From assembly GCA_039800325.1 (NCBI GenBank), contig JBDLQY010000047.1, positions 1 to 18,103 on the forward strand: a stretch of 18,103 nucleotides of DNA. The letters are read 5' to 3'. This document shows, piece after piece, positions 2,223 through 18,103 of the stretch. A program made the position numbers and the translations under genes. Source of the stretch: Pseudomonadota bacterium. Its GTDB lineage: Bacteria > Pseudomonadota > Gammaproteobacteria > Burkholderiales > Burkholderiaceae_E. The number at the start of each line of letters is the position of its first letter. Positions within the stretch are counted from its first letter, which is position 1. The notes under the pieces are model-generated. The model worked only from the letters and a program-made list of their open reading frames with translations. It searched no databases and was not told where the DNA came from.

Positions 2223-2233
2223 AGGAGTACTCC

Positions 2234-3244: not shown

Positions 3245-3245
3245 G

Positions 3246-4097
3246 GTGAGCGGCGCATCGCCCGTGACTGCCCGCGCGGGCGATGCCGGCGCGGCGAAGG
3301 TCCGGTGGCAGCTGGCGTGCATAGCGCCGGCCGTCGCCTTCTTCGCTGCGTTCTGGCTGCTACCGATCGCGCGACTGATCGCCCTGCCCGCTGAAAAGGG
3401 CTGGCAGACCTACTTCGTCGTTCTGACCGAGGCCAAGTACCTTACCAGCCTGCTCAACACACTTCTGCTGTCGCTGGCTGTCACTGCCCTCACGCTGGTG
3501 CTGGGTGCCGCAGTCGGCATCTTCCTGGCGCGCACCCGGTTTATCGGGCGACGCGTGCTGATCTCGCTGCTCACGCTACCCCTCTCGTTTCCAGGCGTGA
3601 TCATCGGCTTCTTCGTCATCCTGCTCGGAGGGCGGCAAGGCGCGATCGCCACGCTGGCCGACTCGCTGGGCCTGGGCCGCTGGACTTTCGCCTACGGCCT
3701 GCTAGGCCTGTTCTTAGCCTACCTGTATTTTTCGCTGCCGCGTGCCATCGCCTCCTACGCAGCGGCCGCGGAAGCAATGGACCGCGCGCTCGAGGAAGCC
3801 GCGCGTTCGCTGGGCGCCTCGCGCTGGCACATCATCCGCGACGTGTGGCTGCCCGAACTCGCACCCACAACCCTGGCCTGCGGCGCCATCGTGTTCGCCA
3901 CCGCCATGGGTGCCTTCGGCACCGCCTTCACGCTGGCCAGCAAGTTCGAGGTGATTCCCATCACCATCTACAACGAATTCACCAACTACGCCAACTTCGC
4001 GCTTGCGGCCTCGCTGTCAATCACGCTGGGCCTGGTGACTTGGGCGGCTCTGGCCCTCGCCCGCCGCCTGGGCGGCACCACCGCACTGGGGGCCTGA
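3246..4097 (+). CDS. ABC transporter permease 1
   Basis: GTG start 1 nt after the upstream TAA. Multi-pass hydrophobic protein with an EAA loop (EEAARSLGASRWHIIRDVWLPELAP). Confidence 0.85.
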   Translation: MSGASPVTARAGDAGAAKVRWQLACIAPAVAFFAAFWLLPIARLIALPAEKGWQTYFVVLTEAKYLTSLLNTLLLSLAVTALTLVLGAAVGIFLARTRFIGRRVLISLLTLPLSFPGVIIGFFVILLGGRQGAIATLADSLGLGRWTFAYGLLGLFLAYLYFSLPRAIASYAAAAEAMDRALEEAARSLGASRWHIIRDVWLPELAPTTLACGAIVFATAMGAFGTAFTLASKFEVIPITIYNEFTNYANFALAASLSITLGLVTWAALALARRLGGTTALGA

Positions 4098-4099
4098 CT

Positions 4100-4906
4100 A
4101 TGTCCACCGCACACTCCCCTGCACGCGGAGCCCCCATCCTGCTGGGCCTGACCCTGCTAGTCGCCGTCTTCATGATCGGGCCAGTGCTGCTATCGGTCAG
4201 CGCCGGCCTCATGCAGAACTACAGCACCGGCTGGCGCAGTGGCTTCACACTTCGCTGGCTAGGAGAGGTCTGGGAGAACTACGGTTCGACCGTCATGGCC
4301 TCGATCCTGATCGCGACGGCGGCTGTCGTCGGGAACATCGTTCTGGGCGTGCCCTGCGCCTACGCGCTAGCCCGTTCGCGCCGGCGCTGGACAGCCTGGT
4401 TCGAGGAACTGATGACATTGCCCGTGGCGGTGCCGGGACTAGCCACCGCGCTGGCCCTGATCCTCGCCTACGGCCAATTGCGCGGATTCCGCCAGAGCTT
4501 CCTGTTCGTTCTGGTGGGGCACATGGTCTTCACCCTGCCCTTCATGGTGCGCACCGTAGCTGCAGCTTTTCGGCGCCACGAGTTGATCGCGCTCGAGGAG
4601 GCCGCCTCCACCCTGGGTGCGTCGTTCGCGCAGCGTTTCATGGGCGTACTGGTGCCAGCGGTCTTTCCGGCCATCGTCAGCGGCGCGCTGATGGTCTTCA
4701 CCCTGTCCATCGGCGAGTTCAACCTCACCTGGATGCTGCACACACCGCTCACCCGCACACTGCCCGTGGGCCTGGCCGACAGTTACGCATCGATGCGCAT
4801 AGAGATCGGCTCGGCCTACACCCTGGTCTTCCTCGTCGTCGTGCTGCCGCTGCTATGGCTGCTGCAACTCGCCGCATCCCTAGCCGAGAAGCGTTATGGA
4901 ACTTGA
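4100..4906 (+). CDS. ABC transporter permease 2
   Basis: ATG at 4100, 2 nt after the upstream TGA. Begins MSTAHSPARGAPILLGL and has an EAA loop (LEEAASTLGASFAQRFMGVLVPAVFP). The upstream in-frame extension to 3845 overlaps permease 1 and was rejected. Confidence 0.85.
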   Translation: MSTAHSPARGAPILLGLTLLVAVFMIGPVLLSVSAGLMQNYSTGWRSGFTLRWLGEVWENYGSTVMASILIATAAVVGNIVLGVPCAYALARSRRRWTAWFEELMTLPVAVPGLATALALILAYGQLRGFRQSFLFVLVGHMVFTLPFMVRTVAAAFRRHELIALEEAASTLGASFAQRFMGVLVPAVFPAIVSGALMVFTLSIGEFNLTWMLHTPLTRTLPVGLADSYASMRIEIGSAYTLVFLVVVLPLLWLLQLAASLAEKRYGT

Positions 4907-5942
4907 ACGCACCCCCATCACCATCCGCCAGTGCGCGAAGACCTACCCCGACGGCACGCGCGGCCTGCAGCCCACCGATCTGGACATCGAGCCGGGCGAG
5001 GTGCTAGCCTTGCTTGGCCCCTCGGGCTGCGGCAAGACCACCCTGCTGCGCATCGTGGCCGGTCTGGAGACGCCCGATGCGGGCGCGAGCATCCTGTTCG
5101 GCGATGACGACGTCACCCGCGTGCCGGTCGAACAGCGCGGGATCGGTATGGTCTTCCAGCACTACGCGCTGTTTCCACAGATGAACGTGGCGGCTAACAT
5201 CGGCTATGGCCTACGCATACGCGGTACTTCCGAGACCGAGGTGCGCCGCAGCGTAGGTGACCTCATCGAGCTGGTACGCCTGAAGGGGCTGGAGCACAAG
5301 CGCCCCGGCGAACTCTCGGGCGGCCAGCGACAGCGAGTAGCCCTGGCACGCGCGATCGCGGTGCGCCCGCGCGTACTGCTGCTAGACGAACCGCTGACCG
5401 CACTCGACGCCAAACTCAAGGAATCTCTGCGCGACGAACTGGCGGAGTTGCTGCGCCGTCTGCACATCACAGCTATCCACGTCACTCATGACCAGCAGGA
5501 GGCCATGTCCATCGCTGATCGCATGGCGGTCATGCAGTCGGGGCAGGTCATCCAGATCGGTACCGCAGAAGACCTCTATCGCTCGCCGCGCCATCACTTT
5601 GTTGCGAGCTTTCTGGGGCGGGTCAATGTAGTACGCCTCGTGCAGGATGACGGTGGCGCGACAGGCATCCGCCTGGGCGGGCTGTGGCTGCCCTGCGCAC
5701 CTCAAGATTCGCAAGACCACGTGCTGCTTCGCCCTGAGGACATCCAGGTCACGCCAGCGCCGGATAGTGCCGTGCGTGTGAGCCATCGCGTGTTCCTGGG
5801 TGATCGCACCCACCTGCGCGTGACCGCCCCAGAAGTCGGCGAACTGCTCGTGGACGTGGCACGCGACTGTCCCTTGCACGTGGGTGATCGTGTGGCCTTG
5901 AGTATCGACCCACACGTCCTCATGACCTGCGGAACCTCGTGA
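4896..5942 (+). CDS. ABC transporter ATP-binding protein (PotA/FbpC-like with C-terminal TOBE-like domain)
   Basis: Walker A GPSGCGKTT, signature LSGGQRQRV, Walker B LLLDEP, H-loop HVTHD. Overlaps the permease 2 stop by 11 nt. Confidence 0.95.
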   Translation: MELERTPITIRQCAKTYPDGTRGLQPTDLDIEPGEVLALLGPSGCGKTTLLRIVAGLETPDAGASILFGDDDVTRVPVEQRGIGMVFQHYALFPQMNVAANIGYGLRIRGTSETEVRRSVGDLIELVRLKGLEHKRPGELSGGQRQRVALARAIAVRPRVLLLDEPLTALDAKLKESLRDELAELLRRLHITAIHVTHDQQEAMSIADRMAVMQSGQVIQIGTAEDLYRSPRHHFVASFLGRVNVVRLVQDDGGATGIRLGGLWLPCAPQDSQDHVLLRPEDIQVTPAPDSAVRVSHRVFLGDRTHLRVTAPEVGELLVDVARDCPLHVGDRVALSIDPHVLMTCGTS

Positions 5943-6766
5943 TGAGCACCTTCCTTTATCAGGTCACCGACCTGCACATCCGCGAGCCCGGACGCAAAGC
6001 CTATGGCCGTCTGGACACCGCACCTTATCTGAAGCTGGCCGTCCAGACCATCGCGCGCTGCCCGCAACCGCCCACCGCAGTGGTGCTGACGGGCGACCTG
6101 ACTGACTTTGGGCGCACCGCGGAATACGAGCATCTCCGCGCCCTCTTGGACGGCCTGAACTGCCCCTATTACCTACTTGTCGGGAATCACGACGAAGCCG
6201 ATAACCTGCGCTCCGCCTTTTCGGAACATGCTTACCTGGGCCGCTCAGGACCCCTGCAGTACTCGGTACCTATTGGTGATCTGCAACTGATCGCACTAGA
6301 CACGACTGTCCGAGGACAAAGTCATGGCGCGCTTGACGCACATCGCCTGGACTGGCTGGCACGCGAGCTGGATTTGGTATCAGACCGGCCGGTTGTCATT
6401 GCCATGCACCACCCGCCTTTCACGACCCTCATCGGCCATATGGACAAGATCGGACTCCTGCAGGGGCGCGAGGAGCTCGAGCAGATCATCTCCCGGCATC
6501 CAAACATCGAGCGTGTTATCTGCGGTCACCTGCATCGGGCAATCGACGTGCGCTTTGGCGGCACGATCGCGTCGACCTCGCCAGCGCCGGCCCACCAAGT
6601 TGTACTCGATTTGCATCCCGAAGCAGTGTCCCAATGGAATCTGGAGCCCGGAGGGTTACGCGTCCATGCGTGGACGACGCATACCGGCCTAGTCACCCAT
6701 ACCCTGCCGGTAGGTGAATTTGAGGGGCCGTACCCGTTTCACGTGGGCGGCGTGCTGATAGACTGA
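5942..6766 (+). CDS. Metallophosphoesterase, GpdQ/CpdA-type phosphodiesterase
   Basis: Calcineurin-like motif set in order: DLH, GDLTDFG, GNHDE, MHHPP, GHLH. ATG at 5942 overlaps the ATPase stop (TGATG); GTG at 5939 is an alternative start. Confidence 0.85.
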   Translation: MSTFLYQVTDLHIREPGRKAYGRLDTAPYLKLAVQTIARCPQPPTAVVLTGDLTDFGRTAEYEHLRALLDGLNCPYYLLVGNHDEADNLRSAFSEHAYLGRSGPLQYSVPIGDLQLIALDTTVRGQSHGALDAHRLDWLARELDLVSDRPVVIAMHHPPFTTLIGHMDKIGLLQGREELEQIISRHPNIERVICGHLHRAIDVRFGGTIASTSPAPAHQVVLDLHPEAVSQWNLEPGGLRVHAWTTHTGLVTHTLPVGEFEGPYPFHVGGVLID

Positions 6767-6778
6767 TCGATCGCCCAA

Positions 6779-6791
6779 CAAAAGGGCTCGT
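6779..6791 (+). repeat. 13-bp direct repeat CAAAAGGGCTCGT, copy 1
   Basis: Exact copy of 16280-16292. It starts 13 nt after the phosphodiesterase stop, where GC content drops. Confidence refers to its being an att/junction repeat rather than chance. Confidence 0.35.
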
Positions 6792-7139
6792 GGTCATAGC
6801 ACCGAAGAAAATACCGGCTGCGCTGCCTGACGCGGTTGTGTCGAAGCAGCCGTCCAAATTTTCACTGTCATGCTTCGTACCGACAACTTCGGGCCTACAA
6901 CTACCTTGACGCCAACCCGCTTTGGCTGTGAGTCTTGTCTGTGGACATTCAACAGGCTTAGCAGGAACCGCGCCCGTGTTGGACTTTGGCGGGGCTTACA
7001 AGCCATTTTTGCTATGCCTGTCATCCCCGTCGCCGGCGGCGTGAAAAACATCCCACTCTTGAGCGAAAAACCGCGTTTTCTTGCTGATTTAAGCGATTTT
7101 TGTGGCAACGCCAGGAAACAGAAGCTGCGAAAAGTCTGC

Positions 7140-7640
7140 TCATGACGGCAGGTCCGCTACCTGGCCTGAAGCAGCGCCTTTAACCTGATGGGGCTTGCGC
7201 CCAGTGATGGGTTGTGCCCGCATCCTTGCCATGGCACTTGTCAGCCAAGCATCCTGCTCTGCCTGCGGGGGCTGCGTGAAGGGCTTAGGAGCTTGCCTGC
7301 GAGCAACCGACGGCAGGCCCGAACCGAGCTGTTGAGATGGCACTCTTTGCGCAGGCTTGGGCGCAGAGCGTTGTCTTGGCTGTTGCGGGGCCTTAGCGCG
7401 CTTTGCTGAACCACGCTTGGAAGACGGAGACGCGGGTGCTTTAGGGGTGCCCCTTGTAGTAGGGGTCACTTTCTTACGTGCAGCGCTGGCGACCACGGAA
7501 GGCGAAGCCCCGCTTGATGCTCCCACCGGTTGGGCAGCCGCGCCTGAGGTCCCCTTCGTCAGTGCAGCCCACACGTTGTCAGAGATGAGCTTCCACAGCG
7601 CCAGCTGGTCCTCTGCACTCACAAACTCGAAAAATCGCAT
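7140..7640 (-). CDS. Hypothetical protein: short structured N-terminus plus long basic P/A/S/Q-rich low-complexity tail
   Basis: Strong RBS AAGGAGG lies 6 nt upstream of the ATG at 7640 (MRFFEFVSAEDQLALWKL...). I chose this start over the ORF-track start at 7769, which would run through the upstream terminator. Confidence 0.55.
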   Translation of the reverse strand: MRFFEFVSAEDQLALWKLISDNVWAALTKGTSGAAAQPVGASSGASPSVVASAARKKVTPTTRGTPKAPASPSSKRGSAKRAKAPQQPRQRSAPKPAQRVPSQQLGSGLPSVARRQAPKPFTQPPQAEQDAWLTSAMARMRAQPITGRKPHQVKGAASGQVADLPS

Positions 7641-7676
7641 GATTGGCCTCCTTTTCTTATATTTATCGTCAGAGGG

Positions 7677-7702
7677 AAAAAACCGGCCTTTATTGGCCGG
7701 TC
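7677..7702 (-). terminator. Rho-independent terminator-like hairpin after the 157-aa gene
   Basis: The minus strand reads GACCGGCC-AATAAA-GGCCGG followed by TTTTTT. It lies 18 nt after the stop of the 7720-8193 gene. Confidence 0.55.
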
Positions 7703-7719
7703 CTGTGGGGAGGTTGAAT

Positions 7720-8193
7720 CTAGACGGAAGCGGACTTGCGCAGCGAGAGCGTCTCCCGCTTGAATCCACGCTTCACATATCCACTGAGTGTTTCGATCTG
7801 CGCGTCTAGATCGCCACGATCGACCGCTTGCATGACGACCTCCAACGTCGCTATGACTTCGTCAAGACCTTGCGCCTCGATCGCATTCTTGCCCTTCTGT
7901 AGTTCCAGGGTCTTCGCTCCGTACTTGATGCACAGGTACGTTTTCCCGTCGTCTCCCAGCCACCACCATGGCCTGACCCGCTTTGGCAGCTCAACTGTCC
8001 GCCTCGCTCCAGTCTCTTGGTCAGCGATCGTCTTGAATCGCATCGGAGCGAACGTTGTTCCTTCCTTGCGTGCCTTTGCGAACTGGATCTGCTCACCAAT
8101 CTTGCTCACAAGCTTTCGCCGACGATGAACTTTGGGATCTGCTGAGGGCTGCCGCTTGGTCGCGACCAACTTAAGGGCGCTGATTCCTGACAT
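7720..8193 (-). CDS. Hypothetical 157-aa protein (contains the RVRPWWWLGDDGKTY segment)
   Basis: RBS GAAGGAG lies 6 nt upstream of the ATG at 8193 (MSGISALKLVATKRQ...). No motif I can name with confidence. Confidence 0.6.
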   Translation of the reverse strand: MSGISALKLVATKRQPSADPKVHRRRKLVSKIGEQIQFAKARKEGTTFAPMRFKTIADQETGARRTVELPKRVRPWWWLGDDGKTYLCIKYGAKTLELQKGKNAIEAQGLDEVIATLEVVMQAVDRGDLDAQIETLSGYVKRGFKRETLSLRKSASV

Positions 8194-8301
8194 TGCTACT
8201 CCTTCATGTGTTGCAGGAATCAGCAATTTATTTTCGAGGGTTCCGATAGAGCAACCGAACTGCAATGACCCGCCGCATTGAACGGACTCTGAAACCGGCG
8301 A

Positions 8302-9882
8302 TCAATCCTTGGCTGTACCAGCGCCCGTCACACGACTTCTTGCAAGCGACTCCTCGTGCTTGATCCAGTCCGTGTGCTCGCGCTGCTGGCGTTCCTCATC
8401 AAGCGACCGTGGCGTGAACCTTTCCAGCCTCTTCGGAGCCAGATGCCAGTACGGGTTGCCTGTTTGCTCGCGCAGCGTTAGCTCGATGTGATGCTTGAGA
8501 TCTGCCCCTAATCGCTTCTTGAAGAAGATCGCGTCATGTACGTTCGCAATGGGACGATGCCCATGCTCCGCCGCTACGCGACGGACGATATCCATCGTGG
8601 ACGTTTCGTCATGCTGGTAAAGGTAGGCAAGTAGCTTCGCCTTGCTCACTCTCCCCGACTCTGTTTGCAGGATCGTGAGTTTTGCAAGATCTGGATAGGA
8701 CTGCATGAACTTCTCGAAGATGTACTGGTCGAGCATCTTCTGTTCAGCGATGAAGCCCTTTACCACTTCATCCGAAAGGAAGCGCTCTCGCTCGGCAGCG
8801 TTCCTCAGGATATCTACCAGAGCTGGATTGACCCAGTTACCAGACCCGTCAGTCCAGCCCTTACCTGCCGCACGTGCGCCGAAGCTGATGGCGGTGAAAG
8901 CTTGCTTCAGTAGCGGCAGCTGGAAGTCCTTCGGCACCGCGCTGTCTTCTTGAAACGTGAAGTAGCGAACCGTTCCCATGAAGTCCGCCTTGTCCTCCAG
9001 ATACAGCAAAGACATCGGAAAGTACGCCTTGACATCGGGTCGTATGCCCATGTCGATGAGCAGATTCCTCGCAAAGCCCATCTTCCACGCCACGACGCTG
9101 CTGCGAATGTCGTACTCCCAGCAGTTGCCAAGCATCGCCCTTCTCAGCTGTTTATGCACGCTCTGCACGCTCAAACCGTCGTAGTACATCCGGCCAAACG
9201 CGCTGGGGTTCTTGCGCTGGACGAAGTACCCGTTGTTGACGTCTGCAATGCTCAGAATCGTCATGGCCTGCTGGGCGAGATGCGTCCGCTGACTAGTGCT
9301 CAGCAAGCTTGCGCCGTCGGTGAGCCATAAGGCGAAGGCTTTAAGCGACTCTTTGTCTACTGGAACAAGGTCAAAGATCTCGGCAAGCTTGTCTGCGCGC
9401 CACTGCGTTGTGAATTCCGGGAAGAGGAACCTGAAGAGCGCAAGCCGGGACTGCTGATTTCCCAGAAGCGCGGCTTCCAGTGCTGCATCGGAGTCCGCAT
9501 GTGAGACAGACTGAGCGACGTCGGTAGAGACAGTCTGCAGCGAAGCAAGTGCACTTAGCTTTACCTGGGAGTTCTGCTTGGTGAACTTCGAGCCCGTGAC
9601 AACCTTCTCGACCAGAGACAGGTTGTTGTCTGATAGCCATTTGTGCAGGCGTATCTTGTCTGGGCCGATTTGTCCTCCCTTGTTCGCGAGCTGCTGAAGG
9701 GAGATGCTGTACAGGTCGAACTTTCGCTGCTCCGGGGTTTGCCCGTGCTGGATCGCAGCGTGAAGCATCTGCTCCAGGACAGCGATGTACTTGTCAAGTG
9801 CACGCTGCGCTGCGGCTTTGGGCTTGGGGAACGCAAGCGTCAAAGCGTGCAACACAACAGGGTCGGCGGATATCTTGATCAT
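8302..9882 (-). CDS. Divergent family-A (Pol I/T7-like) polymerase-domain protein, with no exonuclease domain recognised
   Basis: Long 526-aa ORF. Motifs recognised by eye: SAFGRMYY..LSVQSV (pre-A), WEYDIRSS (motif A, Asp258), KADFMGTVRYF, LLKQAFTAISFG (motif B, Lys326/Phe334-Gly335), FMQSYPDL, ANVHDAIFF (motif C, His449-Asp450). There is no clear SD before the ATG at 9882, so the start is uncertain. Confidence refers to the functional call; the ORF itself is very likely real. Confidence 0.6.
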   Translation of the reverse strand: MIKISADPVVLHALTLAFPKPKAAAQRALDKYIAVLEQMLHAAIQHGQTPEQRKFDLYSISLQQLANKGGQIGPDKIRLHKWLSDNNLSLVEKVVTGSKFTKQNSQVKLSALASLQTVSTDVAQSVSHADSDAALEAALLGNQQSRLALFRFLFPEFTTQWRADKLAEIFDLVPVDKESLKAFALWLTDGASLLSTSQRTHLAQQAMTILSIADVNNGYFVQRKNPSAFGRMYYDGLSVQSVHKQLRRAMLGNCWEYDIRSSVVAWKMGFARNLLIDMGIRPDVKAYFPMSLLYLEDKADFMGTVRYFTFQEDSAVPKDFQLPLLKQAFTAISFGARAAGKGWTDGSGNWVNPALVDILRNAAERERFLSDEVVKGFIAEQKMLDQYIFEKFMQSYPDLAKLTILQTESGRVSKAKLLAYLYQHDETSTMDIVRRVAAEHGHRPIANVHDAIFFKKRLGADLKHHIELTLREQTGNPYWHLAPKRLERFTPRSLDEERQQREHTDWIKHEESLARSRVTGAGTAKD

Positions 9883-10400
9883 GAGACTGCGACGCGAGCG
9901 ATTGCGTTCTCCTCCTCAAGGTATTTAGCGTCACAGATGATCAAGTCACGGCAGCGTGAAGACAAGAAAAAGTCACACGCATATAGTAATTTCTGACTTG
10001 GCGAAGACCTGAGGCCGCCACCCCACAAGGAAGCCGGCGCAGCCGGTCGATACCACCGATCCACTCCTCTGCTGACGCTTGCGTCTTGCCCTGTTGCAGC
10101 GCAGCGTTGCTCGTGGCGTAAGTGCCACGGATATGTAGCGCTGTGGCGCTTTCGCCATGCTGACCGGTTGAGCGTTCAGCTCTTGCGACACGCTTAAACG
10201 CCCTACAGCACGCGATCTCGCAGTTGGGCATGCTGCGGGTGCTGCCCTACCTGTTTACGCGTTGTAGGGCGCCTACGTTGCTTGCGGGCGTTGGGCACTC
10301 TTTCAGTGCATTCGCTCCAGGAAAATCTAACAAAAGTCGCAATTTCCATTGTTTCGCCGCGGTAGCGTTGAAATCATTGAGGAAATTTACTGGGCAAAAG

Positions 10401-10409
10401 TTATCCACA
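10401..10409. promoter_or_regulatory. Perfect consensus DnaA box TTATCCACA
   Basis: Exact 9-mer at the edge of an AT-rich tract (about 10320-10400) in the noncoding region between the polymerase-like gene and the recombinase. Confidence 0.4.
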
Positions 10410-10563
10410 GCCTATTCGTCCAGGACCTCGGCTTACCACCCAACACTTTGATTGAGACGGGCATCTGGAAGAGTCCTTTCGCGCTGCCCGCACTTTGGTT
10501 GCCCGCATAAATACGAGAAAACAAAATGGCTGGACAACACGCAACGCAAAGGAGATCGCGCAG

Positions 10564-11136
10564 ATGGCACAGGCAAGGACACTGAACGCAGCAGAGCTCG
10601 AACGGGTACTAGCGCACATTGCAACCAGCCGACACTCAGTGCGTAACAGAGCGATGCTGCTGCTGACGCATTTAGCGGGCTTGCGTATAGGGGAAGTGGC
10701 TGCGCTGCGATGGTGCGACGTGGTAAACCAGGACGGCAGCGTTAAAGACGAAATCCGCTTGCTGGCCACGATGACCAAGGGCGGTCATGCTCGTACAGTG
10801 TTTGTGAGCAAACGACTACGCGAAGAACTGCAGCGGTACGCTAGCAGCACCAAATGCGTGGAAAGCGGCTACCCGTTCTTCTACAGTCAGAAGTCGGTGC
10901 GGCGCGGATTCACGCCTAACAGCCTATCTCAGACCATGTCGCTTCTGTATGCCCAGGCTGGGCTGGAAGGAGCCACCAGTCACAGCGGACGACGCTCGTT
11001 TCTGACCAATCTCGCGAACAAAGGCACCGCCATACACCTGCTTAAGGCGCTAGCCGGGCATCGCAACATATCCACGACTGCTACGTACCTTTACAGCAGC
11101 CCTGCCCAGCTCAAAGCTGTTGTGGAGCTGGTTTGA
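10564..11136 (+). CDS. Tyrosine site-specific recombinase, catalytic domain only (about 190 aa, FimB/FimE-sized)
   Basis: Catalytic residues appear in order: R (AGLRIGEV), K (TKGGHARTV), HxxR (HSGRRSF), H (GHRNISTT), Y (ATYLY). There is no N-terminal SAM-like/arm-binding domain. AAGGAG lies about 9 nt upstream of the ATG at 10564; the ORF-track start at 10495 is the alternative. Confidence 0.85.
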   Translation: MAQARTLNAAELERVLAHIATSRHSVRNRAMLLLTHLAGLRIGEVAALRWCDVVNQDGSVKDEIRLLATMTKGGHARTVFVSKRLREELQRYASSTKCVESGYPFFYSQKSVRRGFTPNSLSQTMSLLYAQAGLEGATSHSGRRSFLTNLANKGTAIHLLKALAGHRNISTTATYLYSSPAQLKAVVELV

Positions 11137-11499
11137 CGCCTATGGTGCTGGCGGAAACGGAGTCATACGGGGCCAAACGCGCCGAATTCCAACAAGGTCC
11201 AGTAAAAGCTGGCTCAGGATGGACGGTAAATAGGTTGGTAGGATCGCTGCGCGCCGCCAGTAAATCCCTCCGGAAATCGTAGATATCCGGCCACCTAAGC
11301 TGGAGCTCATGAGGAGAGCCTGGTCACTCCGAAGAGGTCTACGCAATATTGCTACACGCTAGGCGGTCAACGGGCAGCCTACATGGTGCCACGCCCAAGT
11401 GGGGCGTACGGATGTAACGCTGTCATGAGCAACACTCAACACCCCGGGAGGTCTGGTGGCGCCGTTGGTGTGGGTATTGCGATAGTTATGTTGTGCACC

Positions 11500-11512
11500 G
11501 CCCACCAATTCC
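11500..11512 (+). repeat. 13-bp direct repeat GCCCACCAATTCC, copy 1
   Basis: Exact copy of 16235-16247. The flanks are also partly similar (9 of 15 nt upstream, then AACTAC and CCCCG downstream with indels). It lies 184 nt before the META gene ATG at 11696. Confidence 0.35.
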
Positions 11513-11695
11513 AAACTACAACTGCCCCGGTGCAAAACCGCATAGATGCTGGGCCTCGTCTGCTGACAGTCAAGAGACCGGCAGAGAAAAACGGGAGCAA
11601 AGAGACTCGGACGGCGAAAAAGGCGGCCTTTTGGCGCGGCCGTAGTCTTATGCTGTACCAGCAAGCACACCTGGCGATAAGATGCTGTTCCAACA

Positions 11696-12640
11696 ATGCA
11701 AAGCACCCGCAAGGAAGTCGCCAACGCGGCCATCACCGGAAGTACCTGCTGGCGCCGTACCCAGTGGATGTTCGCGTTGGCTCTCCTGAGTGGAGCCGGG
11801 CTAACCACCCCATCTTTGGCAGCGGAGTGGGCTTTAGATGACGTGCGCGGCGCACGTTATGGCGGCGTGGAAGGAATCCCCGGAGAGTTTCATCTGGTCC
11901 AAGGTAAATGGACTGGTCAACCTCTCGATCCTGGGGCAGCCAGCAAGCCCACCGTGATGCTGCTGGACGACACCCTGGCCACCGGAGAGGCGGCAGGTGG
12001 CGCGCACCCCGAAGCGGCGGTTGTGTTGGCGGCCTCCTTTGGTGGCTCTGGCGTGTTTCACTATCTGGCCGTGTTGGAGCGGCGCGACGGCCGTCCGGTC
12101 AGTCGCCAGACGTGGGCACTGGGCGACCGGGTGCAGATCAAGCAGGTGCAAATCCATGGTCAGCGTATCCTCGTGGACATGGTTCGAAGCGGCCCCGGCG
12201 ACCCGGCTTGCTGCCCAACGGAATGGGTGACGCTTGCTTACGCTGTGGGGCAAGACCGGTCGATGGCTGTAGGACAGCCACGCCCTGTTCAACTTGCGGA
12301 TATCGGCGGCCCGAACTGGGTCCTGCGCACTTGGGGCGATGGTGAACAGGCACAATTGAACTCGTCGATATCCCTGACCTTCAAGGACGCCGCTTTGCGC
12401 GGGCATGCTGGGTGTAACTCTTATGTGGCCGGTACACAGGCAGGCGCGACCGGCAGCGCGCTCGCCATGGCGCCTGCAGCAACCACCCGAAAGATGTGCG
12501 AGCCCGACGTGATGCGCTCAGAGAGTCGTTTCCTTGAGGCGCTTGCACGCGCCGCCCGGTGGCGATTTGATGGTGGGCGTCTGGCGCTCAGTGCGGATGA
12601 TGGTTCGCCATTACTGACGTTCAGCCGTGAACCACGATGA
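11696..12640 (+). CDS. Secreted META-domain (HslJ-like) protein with an unassigned N-terminal domain
   Basis: The C-terminal half fits the META pattern (WVLRTW...ISLTFKDAALRGHAGCNSY...TRKMCEPDVMRSESRFLEAL...GGRLALS...LLTF). The N-terminus has WRRTQWMFALALLSGAGLTTPSLAA, which is signal-like and possibly Tat-like (RR). An alternative start is ATG 11768. The stop overlaps the next start (ATGA). Confidence 0.75.
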   Translation: MQSTRKEVANAAITGSTCWRRTQWMFALALLSGAGLTTPSLAAEWALDDVRGARYGGVEGIPGEFHLVQGKWTGQPLDPGAASKPTVMLLDDTLATGEAAGGAHPEAAVVLAASFGGSGVFHYLAVLERRDGRPVSRQTWALGDRVQIKQVQIHGQRILVDMVRSGPGDPACCPTEWVTLAYAVGQDRSMAVGQPRPVQLADIGGPNWVLRTWGDGEQAQLNSSISLTFKDAALRGHAGCNSYVAGTQAGATGSALAMAPAATTRKMCEPDVMRSESRFLEALARAARWRFDGGRLALSADDGSPLLTFSREPR

Positions 12641-14730
12641 CTGATCATGCCTGGCTAATGGAGGCGGCTCGTCGGGTACGCCCGGCTGCGGTTCCAACCG
12701 AACCGATTGCGCTTGCAGATGATTTGCAGATGGCTTGGTCTCAGGTCGCGAGGGCGAGCGGCCTTACACCGCGCGAGCTGGCGGCAGCCGTTGCGCTGAC
12801 GAACGGGCTCGATGCTGTAGACCCTAAGCAGATTGATTTTTCTCAAGCCAGCCTCCTGCCCGAAAGGATGTGCCGCCAGCAAGGCCTGGTGCCGGTGTCG
12901 CACGACGAAGCTACGCTGGTCATTGCGGTCAGCGATCCGCGGCTGCCGCTCGAGCAGCTACAAGCGTTGCGCTTCTCGGCTCAGCGCTCGATTCGTCTTG
13001 CTGTCATGGCACCTGACGACATCGATACCGCGCAGCTGCGCTTGTTCTCTCAGGAACACCGCAGCAAATCCGTCGGCGACTTGCCCGAGGTGGACCTCCT
13101 GGCTGACGATGGGGTGAGGAATGTGCCACAAGCCGTCAGCCTAGCCAAGGCCATCTTCCGGGCTGCGCTCGATCTGAATGCGTCTGACGTGCATGCCCAT
13201 CCCTTTGTGGGTGGTGGGGCGATCCGCCTGCGAGTGGATGGCGTCATGCGGCGCGTGTCGACCATCAATGCCTCTACGCTTGAGGCGCTGGCGCGCTACC
13301 TGAAAGCGCAGGCGGGCCTGGACCCCAACCCGCTCAAGCCCCAAGACGGACGACTGCGCCTGAGATACGGACGCCGCATGATTGACGTGCGGCTGTCCAT
13401 TCTTCCGGCATATGACGGCGACCGCATCGTTTGCAGGCTGCTTGACCAAAGCCGGAATTTCTCTTTGCAGTCGAGCGGTTTTTCTACGGCCGAGCAGCAA
13501 ACCTTGCAACGCCTGGTGCTGCGTGACGCAGGCATGGTCCTGTTGACTGGCCCGACGGGCTCTGGCAAGACGAGCACCCTGTACGCGCTGCTTTCGGAAC
13601 TCAACACCGTCGATGTGAACATCATGACGATCGAGGACCCCGTGGAGTACGTGTTGCCAGGTATCTCGCAGATCCAGGCGAACGAAAAGCAGGGGCGTTC
13701 ATTCGCCGACACCTTGCGGTCCATCTTGAGGCAAGACCCGGACATCGTGCTGGTCGGTGAAATTCGCGATGGTGAAACCGCACGCGTTGCAGCGCAAGCC
13801 GCATTGACAGGCCACCTTGTGCTGTCGACCCTGCATACGAACGACGCCATGGGAACGATCCCGCGGCTTCTTAACCTTGATCTTGATCCTGCGATCCTTG
13901 CCGACGCCTTGCTTGGCGTTGTGTCCCAGCGCCTGGTGCGCAAACTCTGCGAGGCATGCCGCGTCGCGCCATCCGTTCCCTATCGTCCGGGCGAGGAAGA
14001 GTTTCATCGGCTCACGGGCAGCTATCCGCGCTACCGCGCGCAGGGATGCAAGCGTTGCGCCATGACAGGCTTCCGCGGCCGGCTCCCGATCGTTGAGATA
14101 TTCGAGACAACCCGCGAGCTTCGCCACGCGATCCAGACAGGCGAGCACAGCTTGCGCGCCTTGACTGCCGCAGTGGGCGGCAGACACCACCTCATGTCCA
14201 GAAGTGCGGAGGCCCGGATCCGGGCCGGGGAGACCACGCCAGCGGAAGCCCAGCGGGCGATGGGAATGGGGTTCTGGTACGAGCTCGCCGAGTCACACGG
14301 CGTCGACACCGGGACGCTGCGTGACGAGTTGGCCGAGGAGGTTCTCGCCGGCCGGCGCTTGAGGGTGCTGGTTGTGTCGACCGACCCCCTGCTTGCAGAC
14401 GAGGTGCGAAGCGCCGTGCCCTACCAGCTGGATTGCGCTGACAGCGTGGCCGCTGCGTCCGAGGCGCTGGATCAGCAACTTGGCGTGATGGCGGTTGTCA
14501 TCGACGCGCATTTGATCGAAGCGGCCGGCGGGCATGCCTTGCGGGAGTCATTGGAAACGATGGCAAATGCCAGTCCGTGGGCAGGCTTGCCACTGCTGCT
14601 TGTCCGTGCAACGGCTGCGCCGGATGACGAGCAACTCCTGCCGGAACGTATTCGTGTTCTGACAGCGCAGGAGTCAACGGCCGAGCCGATGCGGCAGGCA
14701 CTTCTTCAATTGATGGGGCATCACGTATGA
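12637..14730 (+). CDS. PilB/GspE-family type IV filament assembly ATPase with an extra C-terminal receiver-like domain
   Basis: T2SSE N-terminal domain, Walker A GPTGSGKTS, Walker B DIVLVGEIRD, His box GHLVLSTLHTNDA, tetracysteine CEAC...CKRC. About 125 additional C-terminal residues have a CheY-like beta-alpha pattern (RVLVVSTDP...VVIDAHL...LPLLLV). Confidence 0.9.
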   Translation: MTDHAWLMEAARRVRPAAVPTEPIALADDLQMAWSQVARASGLTPRELAAAVALTNGLDAVDPKQIDFSQASLLPERMCRQQGLVPVSHDEATLVIAVSDPRLPLEQLQALRFSAQRSIRLAVMAPDDIDTAQLRLFSQEHRSKSVGDLPEVDLLADDGVRNVPQAVSLAKAIFRAALDLNASDVHAHPFVGGGAIRLRVDGVMRRVSTINASTLEALARYLKAQAGLDPNPLKPQDGRLRLRYGRRMIDVRLSILPAYDGDRIVCRLLDQSRNFSLQSSGFSTAEQQTLQRLVLRDAGMVLLTGPTGSGKTSTLYALLSELNTVDVNIMTIEDPVEYVLPGISQIQANEKQGRSFADTLRSILRQDPDIVLVGEIRDGETARVAAQAALTGHLVLSTLHTNDAMGTIPRLLNLDLDPAILADALLGVVSQRLVRKLCEACRVAPSVPYRPGEEEFHRLTGSYPRYRAQGCKRCAMTGFRGRLPIVEIFETTRELRHAIQTGEHSLRALTAAVGGRHHLMSRSAEARIRAGETTPAEAQRAMGMGFWYELAESHGVDTGTLRDELAEEVLAGRRLRVLVVSTDPLLADEVRSAVPYQLDCADSVAAASEALDQQLGVMAVVIDAHLIEAAGGHALRESLETMANASPWAGLPLLLVRATAAPDDEQLLPERIRVLTAQESTAEPMRQALLQLMGHHV

Positions 14731-14759
14731 GTTGCGCCACACGATCAAAGGAAGACCGC

Positions 14760-15518
14760 ATGAAACATCGTACGTACGGCTTCACGCTGATCGAAATTCT
14801 GGTGGGTATCGCCATCGTTGCAGTGCTGGCGGCGCTGGCGATTCCGTCGTATCAGTCCTACGTTACGCGAAGCCGCATCGCCGAAGCGCTGACGGCTGCT
14901 GATGCCGCGAGAACTACCGTGCAAGAGGCCCTGACCGCGGGGCAGCCTGTGGCAGCCGATTTACTGGCTTCGTCTGGAAAGGCGGCCGACGCCGTTCATT
15001 CGGTCCGTTGGCAGACTGCACCCGCAGGCTCGCCCGCTGCAGGAGCGATCGTGGCCAGCATCAACATTCCTGGCCTGGGGAAGCGCGCAGCACTTGCACT
15101 GGAGTGGCGCGCGGATGGCGGGTGGCACTGCGTCAGTGCCGAGGGCTATGCTGCAGGTGAAAAGTGGGTCGAGCCAGCCTACTTGCCATCCAGCTGCAAG
15201 GATGCAAGCCAGCCGATGCCGCATGTGATGGCGCACAACTCGGCGCCTGACGCTCAGACACCGGGCAGTCGCCCGGCTTGTCAGCCGAATCAGGTCGAAT
15301 TCGGCGGGCGTTGCAATGACGTTTGCAATCCGGGATGGGTGCGGCGCGGCACACAGTGTGAGCTCGCGCCAACCACCCAGATGGCTCCGCCTCAGCCGTC
15401 GGCCCCCGCGCTCCCGCAGTGCAAGCCGCATCAGGTTCTGGTCGCGGCAAACCAGACTTGCGTGAATGTCTGCTCGGAAGGATGGCGCATCAACGGCAAC
15501 CGATGCGCGCAGCTATGA
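14760..15518 (+). CDS. Type IV pilin (class III signal MKHRTYG/FTLIE) with a roughly 100-aa C-terminal Cys-repeat extension
   Basis: RBS AAAGGAAG lies before the ATG at 14760. Has G/FTLIE with Glu+5, a hydrophobic alpha1-N, and a D-region disulfide pair (WHC...PSSC). At 252 aa it is much longer than typical major pilins. Confidence 0.9.
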   Translation: MKHRTYGFTLIEILVGIAIVAVLAALAIPSYQSYVTRSRIAEALTAADAARTTVQEALTAGQPVAADLLASSGKAADAVHSVRWQTAPAGSPAAGAIVASINIPGLGKRAALALEWRADGGWHCVSAEGYAAGEKWVEPAYLPSSCKDASQPMPHVMAHNSAPDAQTPGSRPACQPNQVEFGGRCNDVCNPGWVRRGTQCELAPTTQMAPPQPSAPALPQCKPHQVLVAANQTCVNVCSEGWRINGNRCAQL

Positions 15519-16042
15519 CTTCAGACCAAGGACCACAAAGGAACAGCGCGCCGGATGCGAGCGACAGCATCGCGAGGATTCGCAGTCTCGCCCACGAGCA
15601 CCCGCGAGAGCCCACTCAGCCGGCTACGAACCGCGCGGCCCATGGTTCGACGCACCCGCAAGCGGCGCGGCGCGGTCGCCTGCTCCCCAAGGCGTCGATC
15701 GTCGTCTTGTGTGGATGTGCGCTGGCGGCTCTGGGGGCGTATCACTTTTGGGGACAGCGGGCGCCACCACCGCTTTCGGAAAGTGTGCGCTCCGTCGGCA
15801 CAGCAATCGCCGAACATGTGCGCGCGCATGGAAGCTTGCCCGCTTCGCTCACCGAGTTGAATGCTTTCCCCAAGTCCGCGCAAGAACGCGATGCAGATGC
15901 ACTCAAGCAACCGCCTGGCGCCAGTCTTGAGTTCTTCTATTTCAAGATGCCGCCTAGCGACTTCACCCTCATTGGAAGGAATTCCGGTGAAACGTGGATC
16001 TATCAGCCCGGGCAGGCGGACCCTGTGCGCCGTCTACCTTGA
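15515..16042 (+). CDS. Hypothetical single-pass membrane protein, translationally coupled to the pilin
   Basis: The ATG at 15515 overlaps the pilin stop (ATGA). One TM segment (ASIVVLCGCALAALGAYHFW) follows a charged N-terminal region. No named motif. Confidence 0.55.
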   Translation: MTSDQGPQRNSAPDASDSIARIRSLAHEHPREPTQPATNRAAHGSTHPQAARRGRLLPKASIVVLCGCALAALGAYHFWGQRAPPPLSESVRSVGTAIAEHVRAHGSLPASLTELNAFPKSAQERDADALKQPPGASLEFFYFKMPPSDFTLIGRNSGETWIYQPGQADPVRRLP

Positions 16043-16067
16043 GCTTCGCAACTCGATTTGCGAAGCT
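16042..16067 (+). terminator. Operon-end hairpin (perfect 10-bp stem, no T tract)
   Basis: AGCTTCGCAA (16042-16051) / TTGCGAAGCT (16058-16067) with loop CTCGAT, starting at the last base of the stop codon. It is followed by GGCACC, so it is not a canonical intrinsic terminator. Confidence 0.4.
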
Positions 16068-16234
16068 GGCACCCTGGCTTGAAGGTCTGTCATCAGATGA
16101 CCGGACTTCGTTGCAGCGCGAGCAGCTGTCGCCTGCAAGTTCCTCGCGGCAGGGCGCTGGAAGACACACCGCCTGATGCTGATACCAGGCGGCAACAGGC
16201 GCCATCTCTGCTGATGTGGGTGAGGTTGGCTTCT

Positions 16235-16247
16235 GCCCACCAATTCC
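16235..16247 (+). repeat. 13-bp direct repeat GCCCACCAATTCC, copy 2
   Basis: Exact copy of 11500-11512. It lies in the intergenic region after the pilus-like operon. Confidence 0.35.
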
Positions 16248-16279
16248 GGTTTCGAACTACCCCCGAGAAGTTGGTGGCC

Positions 16280-16292
16280 CAAAAGGGCTCGT
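16280..16292 (+). repeat. 13-bp direct repeat CAAAAGGGCTCGT, copy 2
   Basis: Exact copy of 6779-6791. It lies just before the drop to lower GC at about 16300. Confidence 0.35.
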
Positions 16293-16434
16293 TCAACTAA
16301 CTCGCTTAGTTTTCAGGCCCCCTGTTTTTGGTGGGGTCGGGGATTCGAAGTCGGAGCTTGCCGGTTGGACGTTCAAAAATTCAGAGTTCGTGCTACCATT
16401 CGTCGATGCGATTCAACTTATCAACGAAAAAGAA

Positions 16435-16758
16435 ATGACGACCTCAAAGGCGTGGACCCTCGATGACGTGGCCAAGACTTTTCGCGCGTGCGAGAGCCTG
16501 TTCCACGCAATGGGTGATCCTGCTCGGCAACAGATCGTCTTGCTGCTGGCCGAGCATGAGCGCTTGAATGTGAATCAAATCACCGACCTGATGCATCTCT
16601 CACGCCCCTCCATCTCTCATCATCTGAAAGTGCTCAAAGATGCTGGCATGGTCAGTATTGCGCGCGAGTCGCGAGAAAACTTTTACAGCCTGTTGTGGGA
16701 TGAGCCGATTGGTCGCCTGAAGTTGCTGATTGAGCAGAGCGAGATCGCCTGTAGGTAA
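16435..16758 (+). CDS. ArsR/SmtB-family transcriptional regulator
   Basis: Winged-helix pattern (FHAMGDPARQQIVLLLAEHERLNVNQITDLMHLSRPSISHHLKVLKDAGMV). Starting at ATG 16435 gives 107 aa, typical for the family. The ORF-track start at 16216 was rejected. Confidence 0.85.
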   Translation: MTTSKAWTLDDVAKTFRACESLFHAMGDPARQQIVLLLAEHERLNVNQITDLMHLSRPSISHHLKVLKDAGMVSIARESRENFYSLLWDEPIGRLKLLIEQSEIACR

Positions 16759-16819
16759 ATCCTTTTTTTCACCAATCCGTCGATATGTTTCGACCATTCA
16801 CCCAAAGGAAAACCAACCC

Positions 16820-17605
16820 ATGAAATCGAACCCAGTCGTTTTGATCACCGGCGCTTCTGGCGGCATTGGCAAGGCTCTGTGCGAAGAGTTTGCCAAGAAC
16901 GGCTATGACCTGATCTTGGCCGCTCGTAGCGTCGACAAGATGCAAGCACATGCCGCAGACCTGCAACACCGCTTCAAGATTCAAGTCACCTCCATCGGTG
17001 CAGACCTCGAAAGCCCAAAGGGCGCTGAGCAGCTGCATGCCGAAATCAAGAAGTCCGGCAAAGTGCTGACCGCCTTGGTCAACAACGCTGGCTACGGCGT
17101 ATTTGGTGAGTTCAAAGACTCTTCGCTGGCTTCTGAACTGGCCATGATGCAGCTCAACATGAACACGGTCGTTGCGCTGACAAAGTTGTTCCTGCCAGAT
17201 CTGTTGGCGACGCGCGGGAAGATTCTGAACACCGCCTCAACAGCAGCCTTTCAGCCAGGACCCTACATGGCGGTTTACTGCGCCACCAAGTCTTTCGTAT
17301 TGAGCTTTTCTGAGGCGATTGCCTCTGAGTTGGAAGGCACGGGCGTCACCGTCACAGCCTTTTGTCCTGGTCCGACTGCCTCGGGCTTTCAAGAAAAGGC
17401 AGACCTTGGTAACTCGGCTCTGATCAAGGGAAAAAAACTGCCCACATCGGAAGAAGTTGCAGCACTGGGATACCGCGCCATGCAACGCGGACAGCGCGTC
17501 TATATCCCTGGCGTCGTCAATTGGGTCATGGCCCAAAGCATGCGTTTTACGCCGCGCGATCTGGCCACCAAAGTGGTCAAGATGTTGATCAAGCCTGTCG
17601 CATAA
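16820..17605 (+). CDS. Short-chain dehydrogenase/reductase (SDR) family oxidoreductase
   Basis: TGASGGIGKA cofactor motif, NNAG, and catalytic YCATK (YxxxK). AAAGGAAAA lies upstream of the ATG at 16820. Confidence 0.9.
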   Translation: MKSNPVVLITGASGGIGKALCEEFAKNGYDLILAARSVDKMQAHAADLQHRFKIQVTSIGADLESPKGAEQLHAEIKKSGKVLTALVNNAGYGVFGEFKDSSLASELAMMQLNMNTVVALTKLFLPDLLATRGKILNTASTAAFQPGPYMAVYCATKSFVLSFSEAIASELEGTGVTVTAFCPGPTASGFQEKADLGNSALIKGKKLPTSEEVAALGYRAMQRGQRVYIPGVVNWVMAQSMRFTPRDLATKVVKMLIKPVA

Positions 17606-17614
17606 GGTCTCACC

Positions 17615-18103
17615 ATGATGAACAACATGAGCGACTACTTCGTCGCCGAGAAGCAGGAGAGTGTCATTTTTGTTGTCGTCGGGCTGCTAGCGATTGGTTT
17701 CAGCCTGTGGCTATGGATGAATGGGCACCGTCTAAAGTCCATGGCCTATCCGCTGGTGGTGATTGCATTGATGCAGATTGTGGTGGGTGGCACCGTCTAT
17801 CTCCGAACCGACTCGCAAGTGTCCACCTTGAGCGCACAGTTACAGGTGAACCCTGTAGCCCTTAAAGCCGAGGAGACTGCACGCATGGAGACCGTCATGA
17901 AAAACTTTTCGATCTACAAATCGATCGAAATGCTGCTGTTGATTATGGGGGTCGGAATGATTGCCTTCTTCCAGCGTCACGACGTGGCTGCGGGTATTGG
18001 CGTGGGACTGGTATTGCAGGCGGCGTTCACACTGACGCTGGATATTTTTGCTGAGACCAGAGGCGCTGACTACTTGTCAGTGGTGCAGAGCATTACAACC
18101 TGA
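17615..18103 (+). CDS. Hypothetical integral membrane protein (about 4 TM segments)
   Basis: Begins 10 nt after the SDR stop. Hydrophobic segments include VIFVVVGLLAIGFSLWLW, YPLVVIALMQIVVGG, MLLLIMGVGMIAFF and GIGVGLVLQAAFTL. Ends with TGA at the window end. Confidence 0.55.
   Translation: MMNNMSDYFVAEKQESVIFVVVGLLAIGFSLWLWMNGHRLKSMAYPLVVIALMQIVVGGTVYLRTDSQVSTLSAQLQVNPVALKAEETARMETVMKNFSIYKSIEMLLLIMGVGMIAFFQRHDVAAGIGVGLVLQAAFTLTLDIFAETRGADYLSVVQSITT

Follow-up and report, generated by a model that had tools for sequence, protein, structure and literature searches.

The 18,103-nt stretch of DNA analyzed here (positions 1 to 18,103 of contig JBDLQY010000047.1, assembly GCA_039800325.1; hereafter, the window), which comes from a Pseudomonadota bacterium of the Burkholderiales, contains four closely spaced genes at 11696-16042. 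Three of them, coding for a GspE/PilB-type ATPase, a type IVa prepilin and a single-pass (bitopic) membrane protein, form a rare unit that is conserved in other genomes, and in none of the 34 family loci is this unit linked to a platform, prepilin peptidase or secretin gene. With moderate confidence, we regard the locus as a representative of a conserved accessory type IV pilus module of three genes, with a gene for a META-domain protein added in front.

The four open reading frames (ORFs) occupy the plus strand in the order META protein (314 aa; 11696..12640), ATPase (697 aa; 12637..14730), prepilin (252 aa; 14760..15518, with an alternative ATG at 14727) and bitopic membrane protein (ORF4, 175 aa; 15515..16042). 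Direct reading of the sequence confirmed the ATGA overlaps at the junctions 12637-12640 and 15515-15518, and placed the ATPase stop codon at 14728-14730, followed by a 29-nt gap (14731-14759) in which AAAGGAAG is found just 5′ of the ATG at 14760. A preliminary description of this DNA had listed four coupled genes, joined by ATGA overlaps and a 29-nt gap and coding for a META protein, a PilB/GspE ATPase, a pilin and a single-pass protein; the coupling is borne out by the ORFs and the junctions, and the identities by Pfam and NCBIfam matches and by an AlphaFold model. Two start codons compete for the pilin: initiation at ATG 14727, which overlaps the ATPase stop codon as ATGA, results in an 18-residue leader, and initiation at ATG 14760, preceded by AAAGGAAG, in a leader of 7 residues; the length of the product is disputed among gene callers (263 aa, JGI; 252 aa, Logan). 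There are no frameshifts in the genes of the locus, no sigma-70-like promoter or terminator was found inside the operon, and no Rfam families were found in the window.

Conservation of the ATPase, pilin and bitopic protein genes

The family to which the ATPase belongs comprises some 100 clusters (90% identity), and its members are ~694 aa in length and 40-64% identical to the window ATPase over near-full coverage. The family resides mostly in Betaproteobacteria, with named members in Paucibacter, Comamonadaceae, Rhodocyclaceae and Aliikangiella, and a shortened (533-aa) relative is present in a Sideroxydans metagenome-assembled genome (MAG). Neighborhoods were taken from four long chromosomal contigs (1.9-6.0 Mb) and from 27 metagenome loci retrieved by family-specific peptide patterns, and ORFs from 33 sources, i.e., the window and 32 related loci, many of them on contigs of just 2-5 kb, were clustered all-against-all; a 34th family locus, designated L119, stood outside the clustering. 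Next to the ATPase, present in 33/33 sources, the recurrent partners were the pilin cluster (21/33) and the ORF4 cluster (16/33). Genes for the ATPase, the pilin and an ORF4 homolog share a locus in Paucibacter sp. B51 (GCA_027863535.1), a Rhodocyclaceae MAG (GCA_016702335.1), a Comamonadaceae genome (OZ239421.1), Aliikangiella (sp. IMCC44359, CP199292.1) and L119. Indeed, the window ORF4 matches the pilin-adjoining proteins of Paucibacter, Comamonadaceae, Rhodocyclaceae and Aliikangiella with BLAST E-values of 3e-4 to 2e-14, and blastp located its homologs, with E-values of 1e-11 to 3e-32, beside the pilin or the ATPase in L005, L006, L008, L009 and L119. The order of the three genes varies across lineages, from ATPase-pilin-membrane protein to pilin-membrane protein-ATPase or to a membrane protein gene divergent from ATPase-pilin, which argues for selection on co-location of a functionally linked set rather than for a frozen syntenic block.

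In the closest relative, L119, the ATPase is 64%, the pilin 52% and the membrane protein 41% identical to those of the window, and the pilin has the same two Cys modules. The ATPase gene of L119 is separated from a short divergent upstream ORF by 113 nt, a space that is too small for a META gene. The quartet of META, ATPase, pilin and membrane protein genes, which had been put forward as a potentially conserved unit, thus fails as such: the window META protein has no BLAST match in any other family locus, the closest relative included. Conservation extends to the ATPase, the pilin and the single-pass protein as a trio, and literature searches returned no description of such a conserved module lacking a platform.

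Lack of linked platform, peptidase and secretin genes

A six-frame scan revealed a single prepilin motif in the whole window, and hidden Markov models (HMMs) for PilC, PilD and secretin had no match in it, in agreement with the earlier claim that it encodes no platform, peptidase, secretin or minor pilins. Nor did the other genes of the window, or those of L003, a longer JGI contig from the same organism, match any pilus or secretion family. For comparison, we used 79 ordinary GspE/PilB loci among the matches listed in a scan with the full ATPase alignment and generic motifs (TGPTGSGK, LRQDPD) as the query, which also returned one distant family member (L010). The HMMs were built from three clusters of control-locus ORFs, which we take to be PilC/GspF, prepilin peptidase and secretin, with 42 sequences contributing to the PilC HMM. 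Control loci were matched by the PilC HMM in 41/79, by the PilD HMM in 13/79 and by the secretin HMM in 12/79 cases, as opposed to 0/33 clustered family sources, window included, for each of the three (PilC, Fisher p 5e-9); at least 3 kb were available on both sides of the ATPase in 12/33 sources. With L119, which was judged by its gene list, linked PilC, PilD or secretin genes number 0/34. Furthermore, PilM/N/O/P families are missing from the Pfam matches of the genes in L003, L004, L006, L008 and L009, and when 112 ORFs in the flanks of family loci were scanned against Pfam, no recurrent pilus family emerged. Because the HMMs match none of the 33 sources and the flank ORFs show no recurrent pilus family, the missing machinery is a property of the family and not an effect of window or assembly edges. 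A canonical pil cluster just outside the window, which would have turned the locus into its mere edge, was sought and found neither in the window flanks, nor in contig L003, nor in the 33 related loci.

The ATPase and its receiver-like domain

In Pfam, the ATPase matches T2SSE (PF00437) with an E-value of 4.5e-105. Its scores are 400.8 bits vs a cut-off of 630.25 for GspE (TIGR02533), 371 vs 675.65 for PilB (TIGR02538) and 327.8 vs 850 for TfpB (NF053534); since they are below all curated NCBIfam cut-offs, the protein falls outside the GspE, PilB and TfpB equivalogs. The Walker A motif, Asp box, Walker B motif, His box and two CxxC pairs are intact and are invariant across 58 family members, so that, judged by its sequence, the protein looks like a functional, active motor of the extension type. 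The N-terminal part includes an N1/MshEN-type domain (residues 62-142, 12820..13062, plus strand; PF05157, E 3.6e-14). The 24-residue cyclic di-GMP motif of MshEN, which was tested by a regular expression in its paired form, RLGxx(L/V/I)(L/V/I)xxG...Q, as defined in PMC5013675, occurs in 0/58 family ATPases vs 17/109 canonical ATPases. MshEN domains can co-occur with receiver (REC) domains (PMC5013675).

Members of the family have a ~150-residue C-terminal extension, which is absent from ordinary PilB and GspE. A profile of this region compared with the PDB matched CheY over its full length (E 4.9e-5, profile positions 26-144), and the corresponding part of the window ATPase, at approximately residues 573-691, is encoded by 14353..14709 on the plus strand. 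D623 aligns with the phospho-acceptor D57 of CheY and is at least 90% conserved in the 58 sequences, and the C-terminal domain may therefore be described as receiver-like. Our literature searches turned up no description of a receiver-fused PilB or GspE. The gene after the family ATPase in the Rhodocyclaceae locus (L006, 10145-10984) codes for a 279-aa protein that contains two receiver domains, and a gene for a BLUF photoreceptor is found 0.5 kb past it, which hints at two-component or light control of the module in that genome.

The modular pilin

The pilin matches N_methyl (PF07963), Pilin (PF00114) and TIGR02532, and its leader, MKHRTYG|FTLIE, is a canonical class III signal. The core is of the normal type IVa kind, with the helix AIPSYQSYV and a C124-C146 disulfide region, and is followed by a C-terminal extension of ~100 extra residues consisting of Pro-rich linkers and two 4-Cys modules, defined by their Cys positions (residues 174-200, 15279-15359, and residues 221-249, 15420-15506, both on the plus strand). 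It is thus a “modular pilin”, in which the extension of a normal core presumably serves to display an adhesive or binding module. Pilins of the relatives are mostly 350-520 aa in length, with more Cys modules and a terminal 10-Cys domain.

This domain of the long pilins, which the window pilin does not have, spans ~100 aa and ends in a “C.C....CN” signature. It was seen in L004 (12082-13341), L006 (5928-7175), L008 (10143-11411) and L009 (10127-11350), and also in L092, L094, L100, L101, L103, L106, L115 and L116. All ten of the 10-Cys members tested gave sub-threshold matches to the Ly-6/uPAR-like Quiver family, PF17064, with a best E-value of 9.6e-6; the first member scored 22.6 bits vs a cut-off of 27.3, and the match is full-length for the member shown. 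The 10-Cys domain had no sequence match in the PDB. Going by these similarities, the long pilins of the relatives may carry a three-finger domain of the Ly-6/uPAR-like type. To our knowledge, this fold is regarded as metazoan, and its presence on a bacterial pilin, if true, would be unusual.

The bitopic membrane protein

An AlphaFold model of ORF4, based on a 14-sequence alignment, consists of a disordered cytoplasmic N-terminus, one transmembrane helix (residues 59-80, 15689-15754, plus strand) and a small alpha/beta periplasmic domain (residues 87-175), with a predicted local distance difference test (pLDDT) score above 90 at residues 90-170. The cytoplasmic tail contains short conserved acidic/Leu motifs. 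No family match was found in Pfam, NCBIfam or PHROG, and a Foldseek search of the PDB with the predicted fold gave no match (best E 0.47). The ORF4 family comprises 89 representatives among 1.84 billion proteins, and is thus similar in size to the ATPase family. The bitopic protein is a member of an undescribed family and the conserved third member of the module. The preliminary description had correctly recognized both the ATPase and the single-pass protein, and had overlooked the receiver-like domain at the C-terminus of the former and the membership of the latter in a conserved family.

A pseudopilin-like nature of ORF4 and the related proteins of cluster c16, which have a motif like the YxxxxGxYP of GspG, was considered and dropped in view of the Foldseek result, a pilin-like topology being all that is left of the resemblance. 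A second type of bitopic protein, ~160 aa in length and containing IEAYRLSQGKYP, often pairs with short pilins (~150-270 aa). In some genomes (L091, L092, L099 and L101), a locus contains two family ATPases and/or two pilins; every pilin gene, also in the two-pilin loci, has a bitopic protein gene of its own next in line, and the long pilins pair with the ORF4 type.

The META protein and other secreted neighbors

In the first gene of the window operon, META (PF03724) is matched at residues 203-309 with 79.2 bits vs a cut-off of 24. The protein is built of a hydrophobic signal-like N-terminal helix, a beta-rich domain (approximately residues 45-200) and the META/HslJ-like domain (203-309); its AlphaFold model has a pLDDT of 88.8, and was matched by Foldseek to 2LA7 at an E-value of 1.3e-4 and to 2KTS (NP_415897.1), which we take to be E. 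coli HslJ, at 1.1e-3. Both the sequence and the predicted fold of its C-terminal domain identify it as a bona fide META domain; the differences from these HslJ/META proteins lie in the extra beta-rich N-terminal domain and in the coupling to a pilus ATPase. The beta-rich domain has no clear relative; its possible relationship to the PliI-like proteins of cluster c36 was rejected, as hhalign aligned only a 22-column FG-GAP-like motif with a probability of 2%.

META homologs of the same architecture, ~300-317 aa in length and 30-40% identical, are found adjoining genes for carbonic anhydrase, TonB receptors, RNase T and others, with no ATPase gene nearby. A different architecture, with an N-terminal META domain (341 and 374 aa), directly flanks the module in L008 and L106, so that META-domain proteins of two architectures are located beside the module in 3 loci; translational coupling of META to the ATPase was seen only in the lineage of the window. 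The META gene, presumably co-transcribed with the ATPase gene, stands outside the conserved module, and it is fairly likely to be a lineage-specific passenger. Other small periplasmic proteins recur in similar positions: YcgJ (PF05666) is encoded beside the module in ~11 loci, and a ~125-aa Cys-rich lipoprotein and a PliI-like 200-aa protein (31.1 bits vs 27) are among the further neighbors, often together with a TetR regulator (L008, 12299-12637; L090, L095, L100-L104 and others). These recurring neighbors may be co-regulated passengers or clients. Their placement beside the module is a loose tendency and does not amount to a quartet.

Mode of operation and alternative explanations

Class III signal peptides require a prepilin peptidase, and since none is present in the module, its dependence on a host peptidase is certain. 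The question raised in the preliminary description, whether the locus borrows a resident type IV pilus or type II secretion system (T2SS) machine or represents a reduced filament system, remains the right one. We think it reasonably probable that the ATPase is an accessory extension motor which, with its dedicated pilin and the cognate bitopic protein as partner, makes use of resident PilD, PilC and PilQ in trans. The prepilin would be processed by resident PilD, as the module itself never carries a peptidase, and a resident PilC and PilMNOPQ (or Gsp) machine would serve in trans as the platform and outer-membrane conduit. As an alternative motor, the dedicated ATPase would dock on the resident machine and load its cognate pilin, and the bitopic protein could be a pilin-specific adaptor or a motor anchor, with docking possibly occurring through its disordered cytoplasmic tail. 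The receiver-like domain might function as an on-switch, gating ATPase activity. We infer dependence in trans from the canonical G|FTLIE leader and from the fact that the module never comes with a peptidase, platform or secretin, and the use of the resident machine, the docking role and the receiver-like regulation are likewise inferred.

Several points weigh against this scheme. In the receiver-like domain, the acidic pair (equivalents of D12/D13) is replaced by S..D; residues 549-697 of the ATPase yield no match to PF00072 or any other Pfam family at E up to 1, the sole PF00072 signal in the family being a faint match in the Aliikangiella relative, and the domain may be a pseudo-receiver. 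The presence of a resident type IVa pilus (T4aP) or T2SS in the host is assumed from general knowledge of Burkholderiales, and the docking role of the bitopic protein, for which no structural relative could be detected, is suggested by analogy only. As extension ATPases are usually platform-specific (PMC11656802), a borrowed platform would need co-adaptation.

If the module were instead a self-contained reduced filament (endopilus), the ATPase would drive the pilin without PilC/GspF, and the bitopic protein would provide the coupling at the membrane; a short periplasmic fiber might then expose or expel the neighboring small periplasmic proteins (META, YcgJ, PliI-like and Cys-rich lipoprotein). 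This would be in line with the 0/34 count for linked platform, peptidase and secretin, with a bitopic protein that is conserved as the pilin is and has a confidently predicted novel periplasmic domain, and with the recurrence of small secreted proteins (YcgJ in ~11 loci, META-domain proteins in 3). We nevertheless find it unlikely, as a single-pass protein would hardly substitute for a polytopic trimeric platform, the secreted neighbors differ from locus to locus, and the canonical leader needs an outside peptidase, so that full autonomy is already excluded; moreover, platform and peptidase belong to the universal core of described type 4 filaments, according to PMC10191384 and the abstract of a 2026 archaeal TFF preprint. 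A platform-independent assembly, in which the receiver-gated motor, the modular pilin and the single-pass partner would borrow at most the peptidase, is more doubtful still, and is kept alive at low probability because of the usual platform specificity of extension ATPases; if true, it would overturn the view that a PilC/GspF platform is needed universally. Alternatively, the receiver-fused ATPase could signal, or compete for the motor site of the resident machine, and thereby alter pilus dynamics, and the pilin would then be a subunit of the minor, tip or priming kind, or else a periplasmic protein anchored in the membrane. The receiver-like domain and the two-receiver response regulator that follows the ATPase in the Rhodocyclaceae locus speak for such a regulatory or competitive role; in addition, PilB can be a signaling protein in M. 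xanthus (PMC5544727), and bulky modular pilins are usually minor (bioRxiv 10.1101/2021.01.27.428410 = PMC8179133; PMC9934059). The ATP-hydrolysis and zinc motifs are, however, fully invariant, the strict adjacency to the pilin and partner genes suggests a mechanical substrate, and the pilin core resembles those of major type IVa pilins, all of which makes this possibility an improbable one.

The surroundings of the operon could also be taken to mean that it travels as cargo on a mobile island, or that the locus is phase-variable, under the control of the short tyrosine recombinase (213 aa; 10495..11136, plus strand; PF00589, phrog_216) encoded 559 nt upstream. The recombinase is similar in size to FimB/FimE-type invertases and matches NF007370 with an E-value of 2e-10, the flanks are lower in GC, two assemblies break at position 16337, and a gene of the phage family DUF6641 is present at the left. 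A Fim-type invertible promoter switch was rejected, as no convincing pair of inverted repeats brackets 11137-11695, and three assemblies are collinear, with no inversion between them. Neither a tRNA gene nor flanking direct repeats were found; in other genomes, no recombinase was found beside the module, and the same applies to the DUF6641, 526-aa and 209-aa flank genes; nor do low-GC flanks accompany the module there. The ATPase family was not found in a pattern scan of viral contigs, and a tblastn search of a plasmid collection revealed no full-length family member (best identity 37-39%, coverage <80%). On balance, we view mobility or phase variation as very improbable. Least credible of all is that a canonical pil/gsp cluster is decaying to this remnant, or has its edge here, the incomplete gene set being the sole point in favor: flanks of at least 10 kb in the four long contigs, as well as those in the window, consist of unrelated metabolic genes, and the same incomplete set is seen across orders, under strong purifying conservation and with no frameshifts.

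Comparison with known systems

Returning to the accessory module that would operate in trans and to the META gene in front of it, the components (a type IV filament ATPase, a type IVa pilin and a META protein) belong to known families; the combination is new, and the bitopic family is undescribed. With canonical T4aP pilB-pilC-pilD and T2SS gspE-gspF systems the module has in common the ATPase fold and motifs, the zinc-binding Cys4, the N1 domain and the type IVa-like character of the prepilin, including its G|F..E leader and its C-terminal disulfide. It differs from them in the extra receiver-like domain, in the lack of minor pilins and PilMNOPQ, and in its linkage to the platform (0/34 vs 41/79 control loci) and to the peptidase (0/34 vs 13/79). 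Type 4 filaments have bitopic proteins for ATPase anchoring or alignment (GspL, PilN, TcpR and BfpC), and ORF4 has the same topology and linkage to an extension ATPase; the likeness is one of analogy only, with no similarity to them detected in sequence (Pfam/NCBIfam) or in structure (Foldseek best E 0.47).

A second, phylogenetically distinct extension ATPase of a resident T4aP is represented by TfpB of A. baylyi (PMC8213720; reviewed in PMC11656802), in which pilus synthesis needs PilB and TfpB together with the resident platform PilC and secretin PilQ (PMC8213720). The window ATPase would be similar to TfpB in serving a resident T4aP as a second motor. It remains well under the TfpB cut-off (327.8 bits vs 850, NF053534), has a CheY-like C-terminal domain and, unlike TfpB, is strictly linked to a modular pilin and a bitopic protein of its own. 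The modular pilins PilB and PilC of Streptococcus sanguinis (PMC8179133; PMC9934059) combine a pilin module with an extra C-terminal module that is probably displayed on the fiber, as does the pilin described here, which differs in having short 4-Cys repeats and its own ATPase and is characterized here at the sequence level.

Type IV filament machines are thought to share a pilin-peptidase-ATPase-platform core, with extension ATPases matched to their own platform. The module would imply that re-tasking of a resident pilus machine, to display another adhesive subunit under signal control, is widespread; less likely, it would imply that filaments can be assembled in the absence of a platform. 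Either outcome bears on how motors choose their pilins and platforms. Paucibacter sp. B51, a named NCBI genome that is not a MAG and contains the module, would offer a small genetic system, if the strain is obtainable.

Genomic surroundings of the operon

The GC content of the operon (60-67%) exceeds that of the left (54-59% at 6500-11500) and right (52-57% at 16000-18103) flanks. The earlier observation of a high-GC operon between lower-GC segments and next to a recombinase is therefore accurate; the characterization of these segments as mobile-looking is borne out in part, by the recombinase and the DUF6641/phrog_31551 gene at the left, and finds no support in tRNA genes, repeats, or plasmid or phage relatives of the 526-aa ORF of the left flank. 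The GC contrast is real, yet it defines no island containing the operon.

This 526-aa ORF (8302-9882, minus strand) produced no Pfam, NCBIfam or PHROG match, and tblastn searches of 72,556 plasmids and 50,697 phages gave none either. Its neighbors (7720-8265 and 7140-7769, also on the minus strand) include a DUF6641/phrog_31551 gene as well as an ORF of 209 aa that is rich in Pro/Ala/Ser. The region, along with the recombinase at 10495-11136, may constitute an uncharacterized integrative element. At the right, a look-up of the SDR protein had nothing on record. Two independent Logan assemblies, L001 and L002, both stop exactly at position 16337, where GC falls from ~63% to 52-57%; this position may mark a junction that varies among strains or the boundary of a repeat, and a repeat or tRNA gene was not found there. 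The unrelated part of the window at 1185-6766 encodes a LacI-family regulator, an ABC importer (binding protein, two permeases and ATPase) and a metallophosphoesterase.

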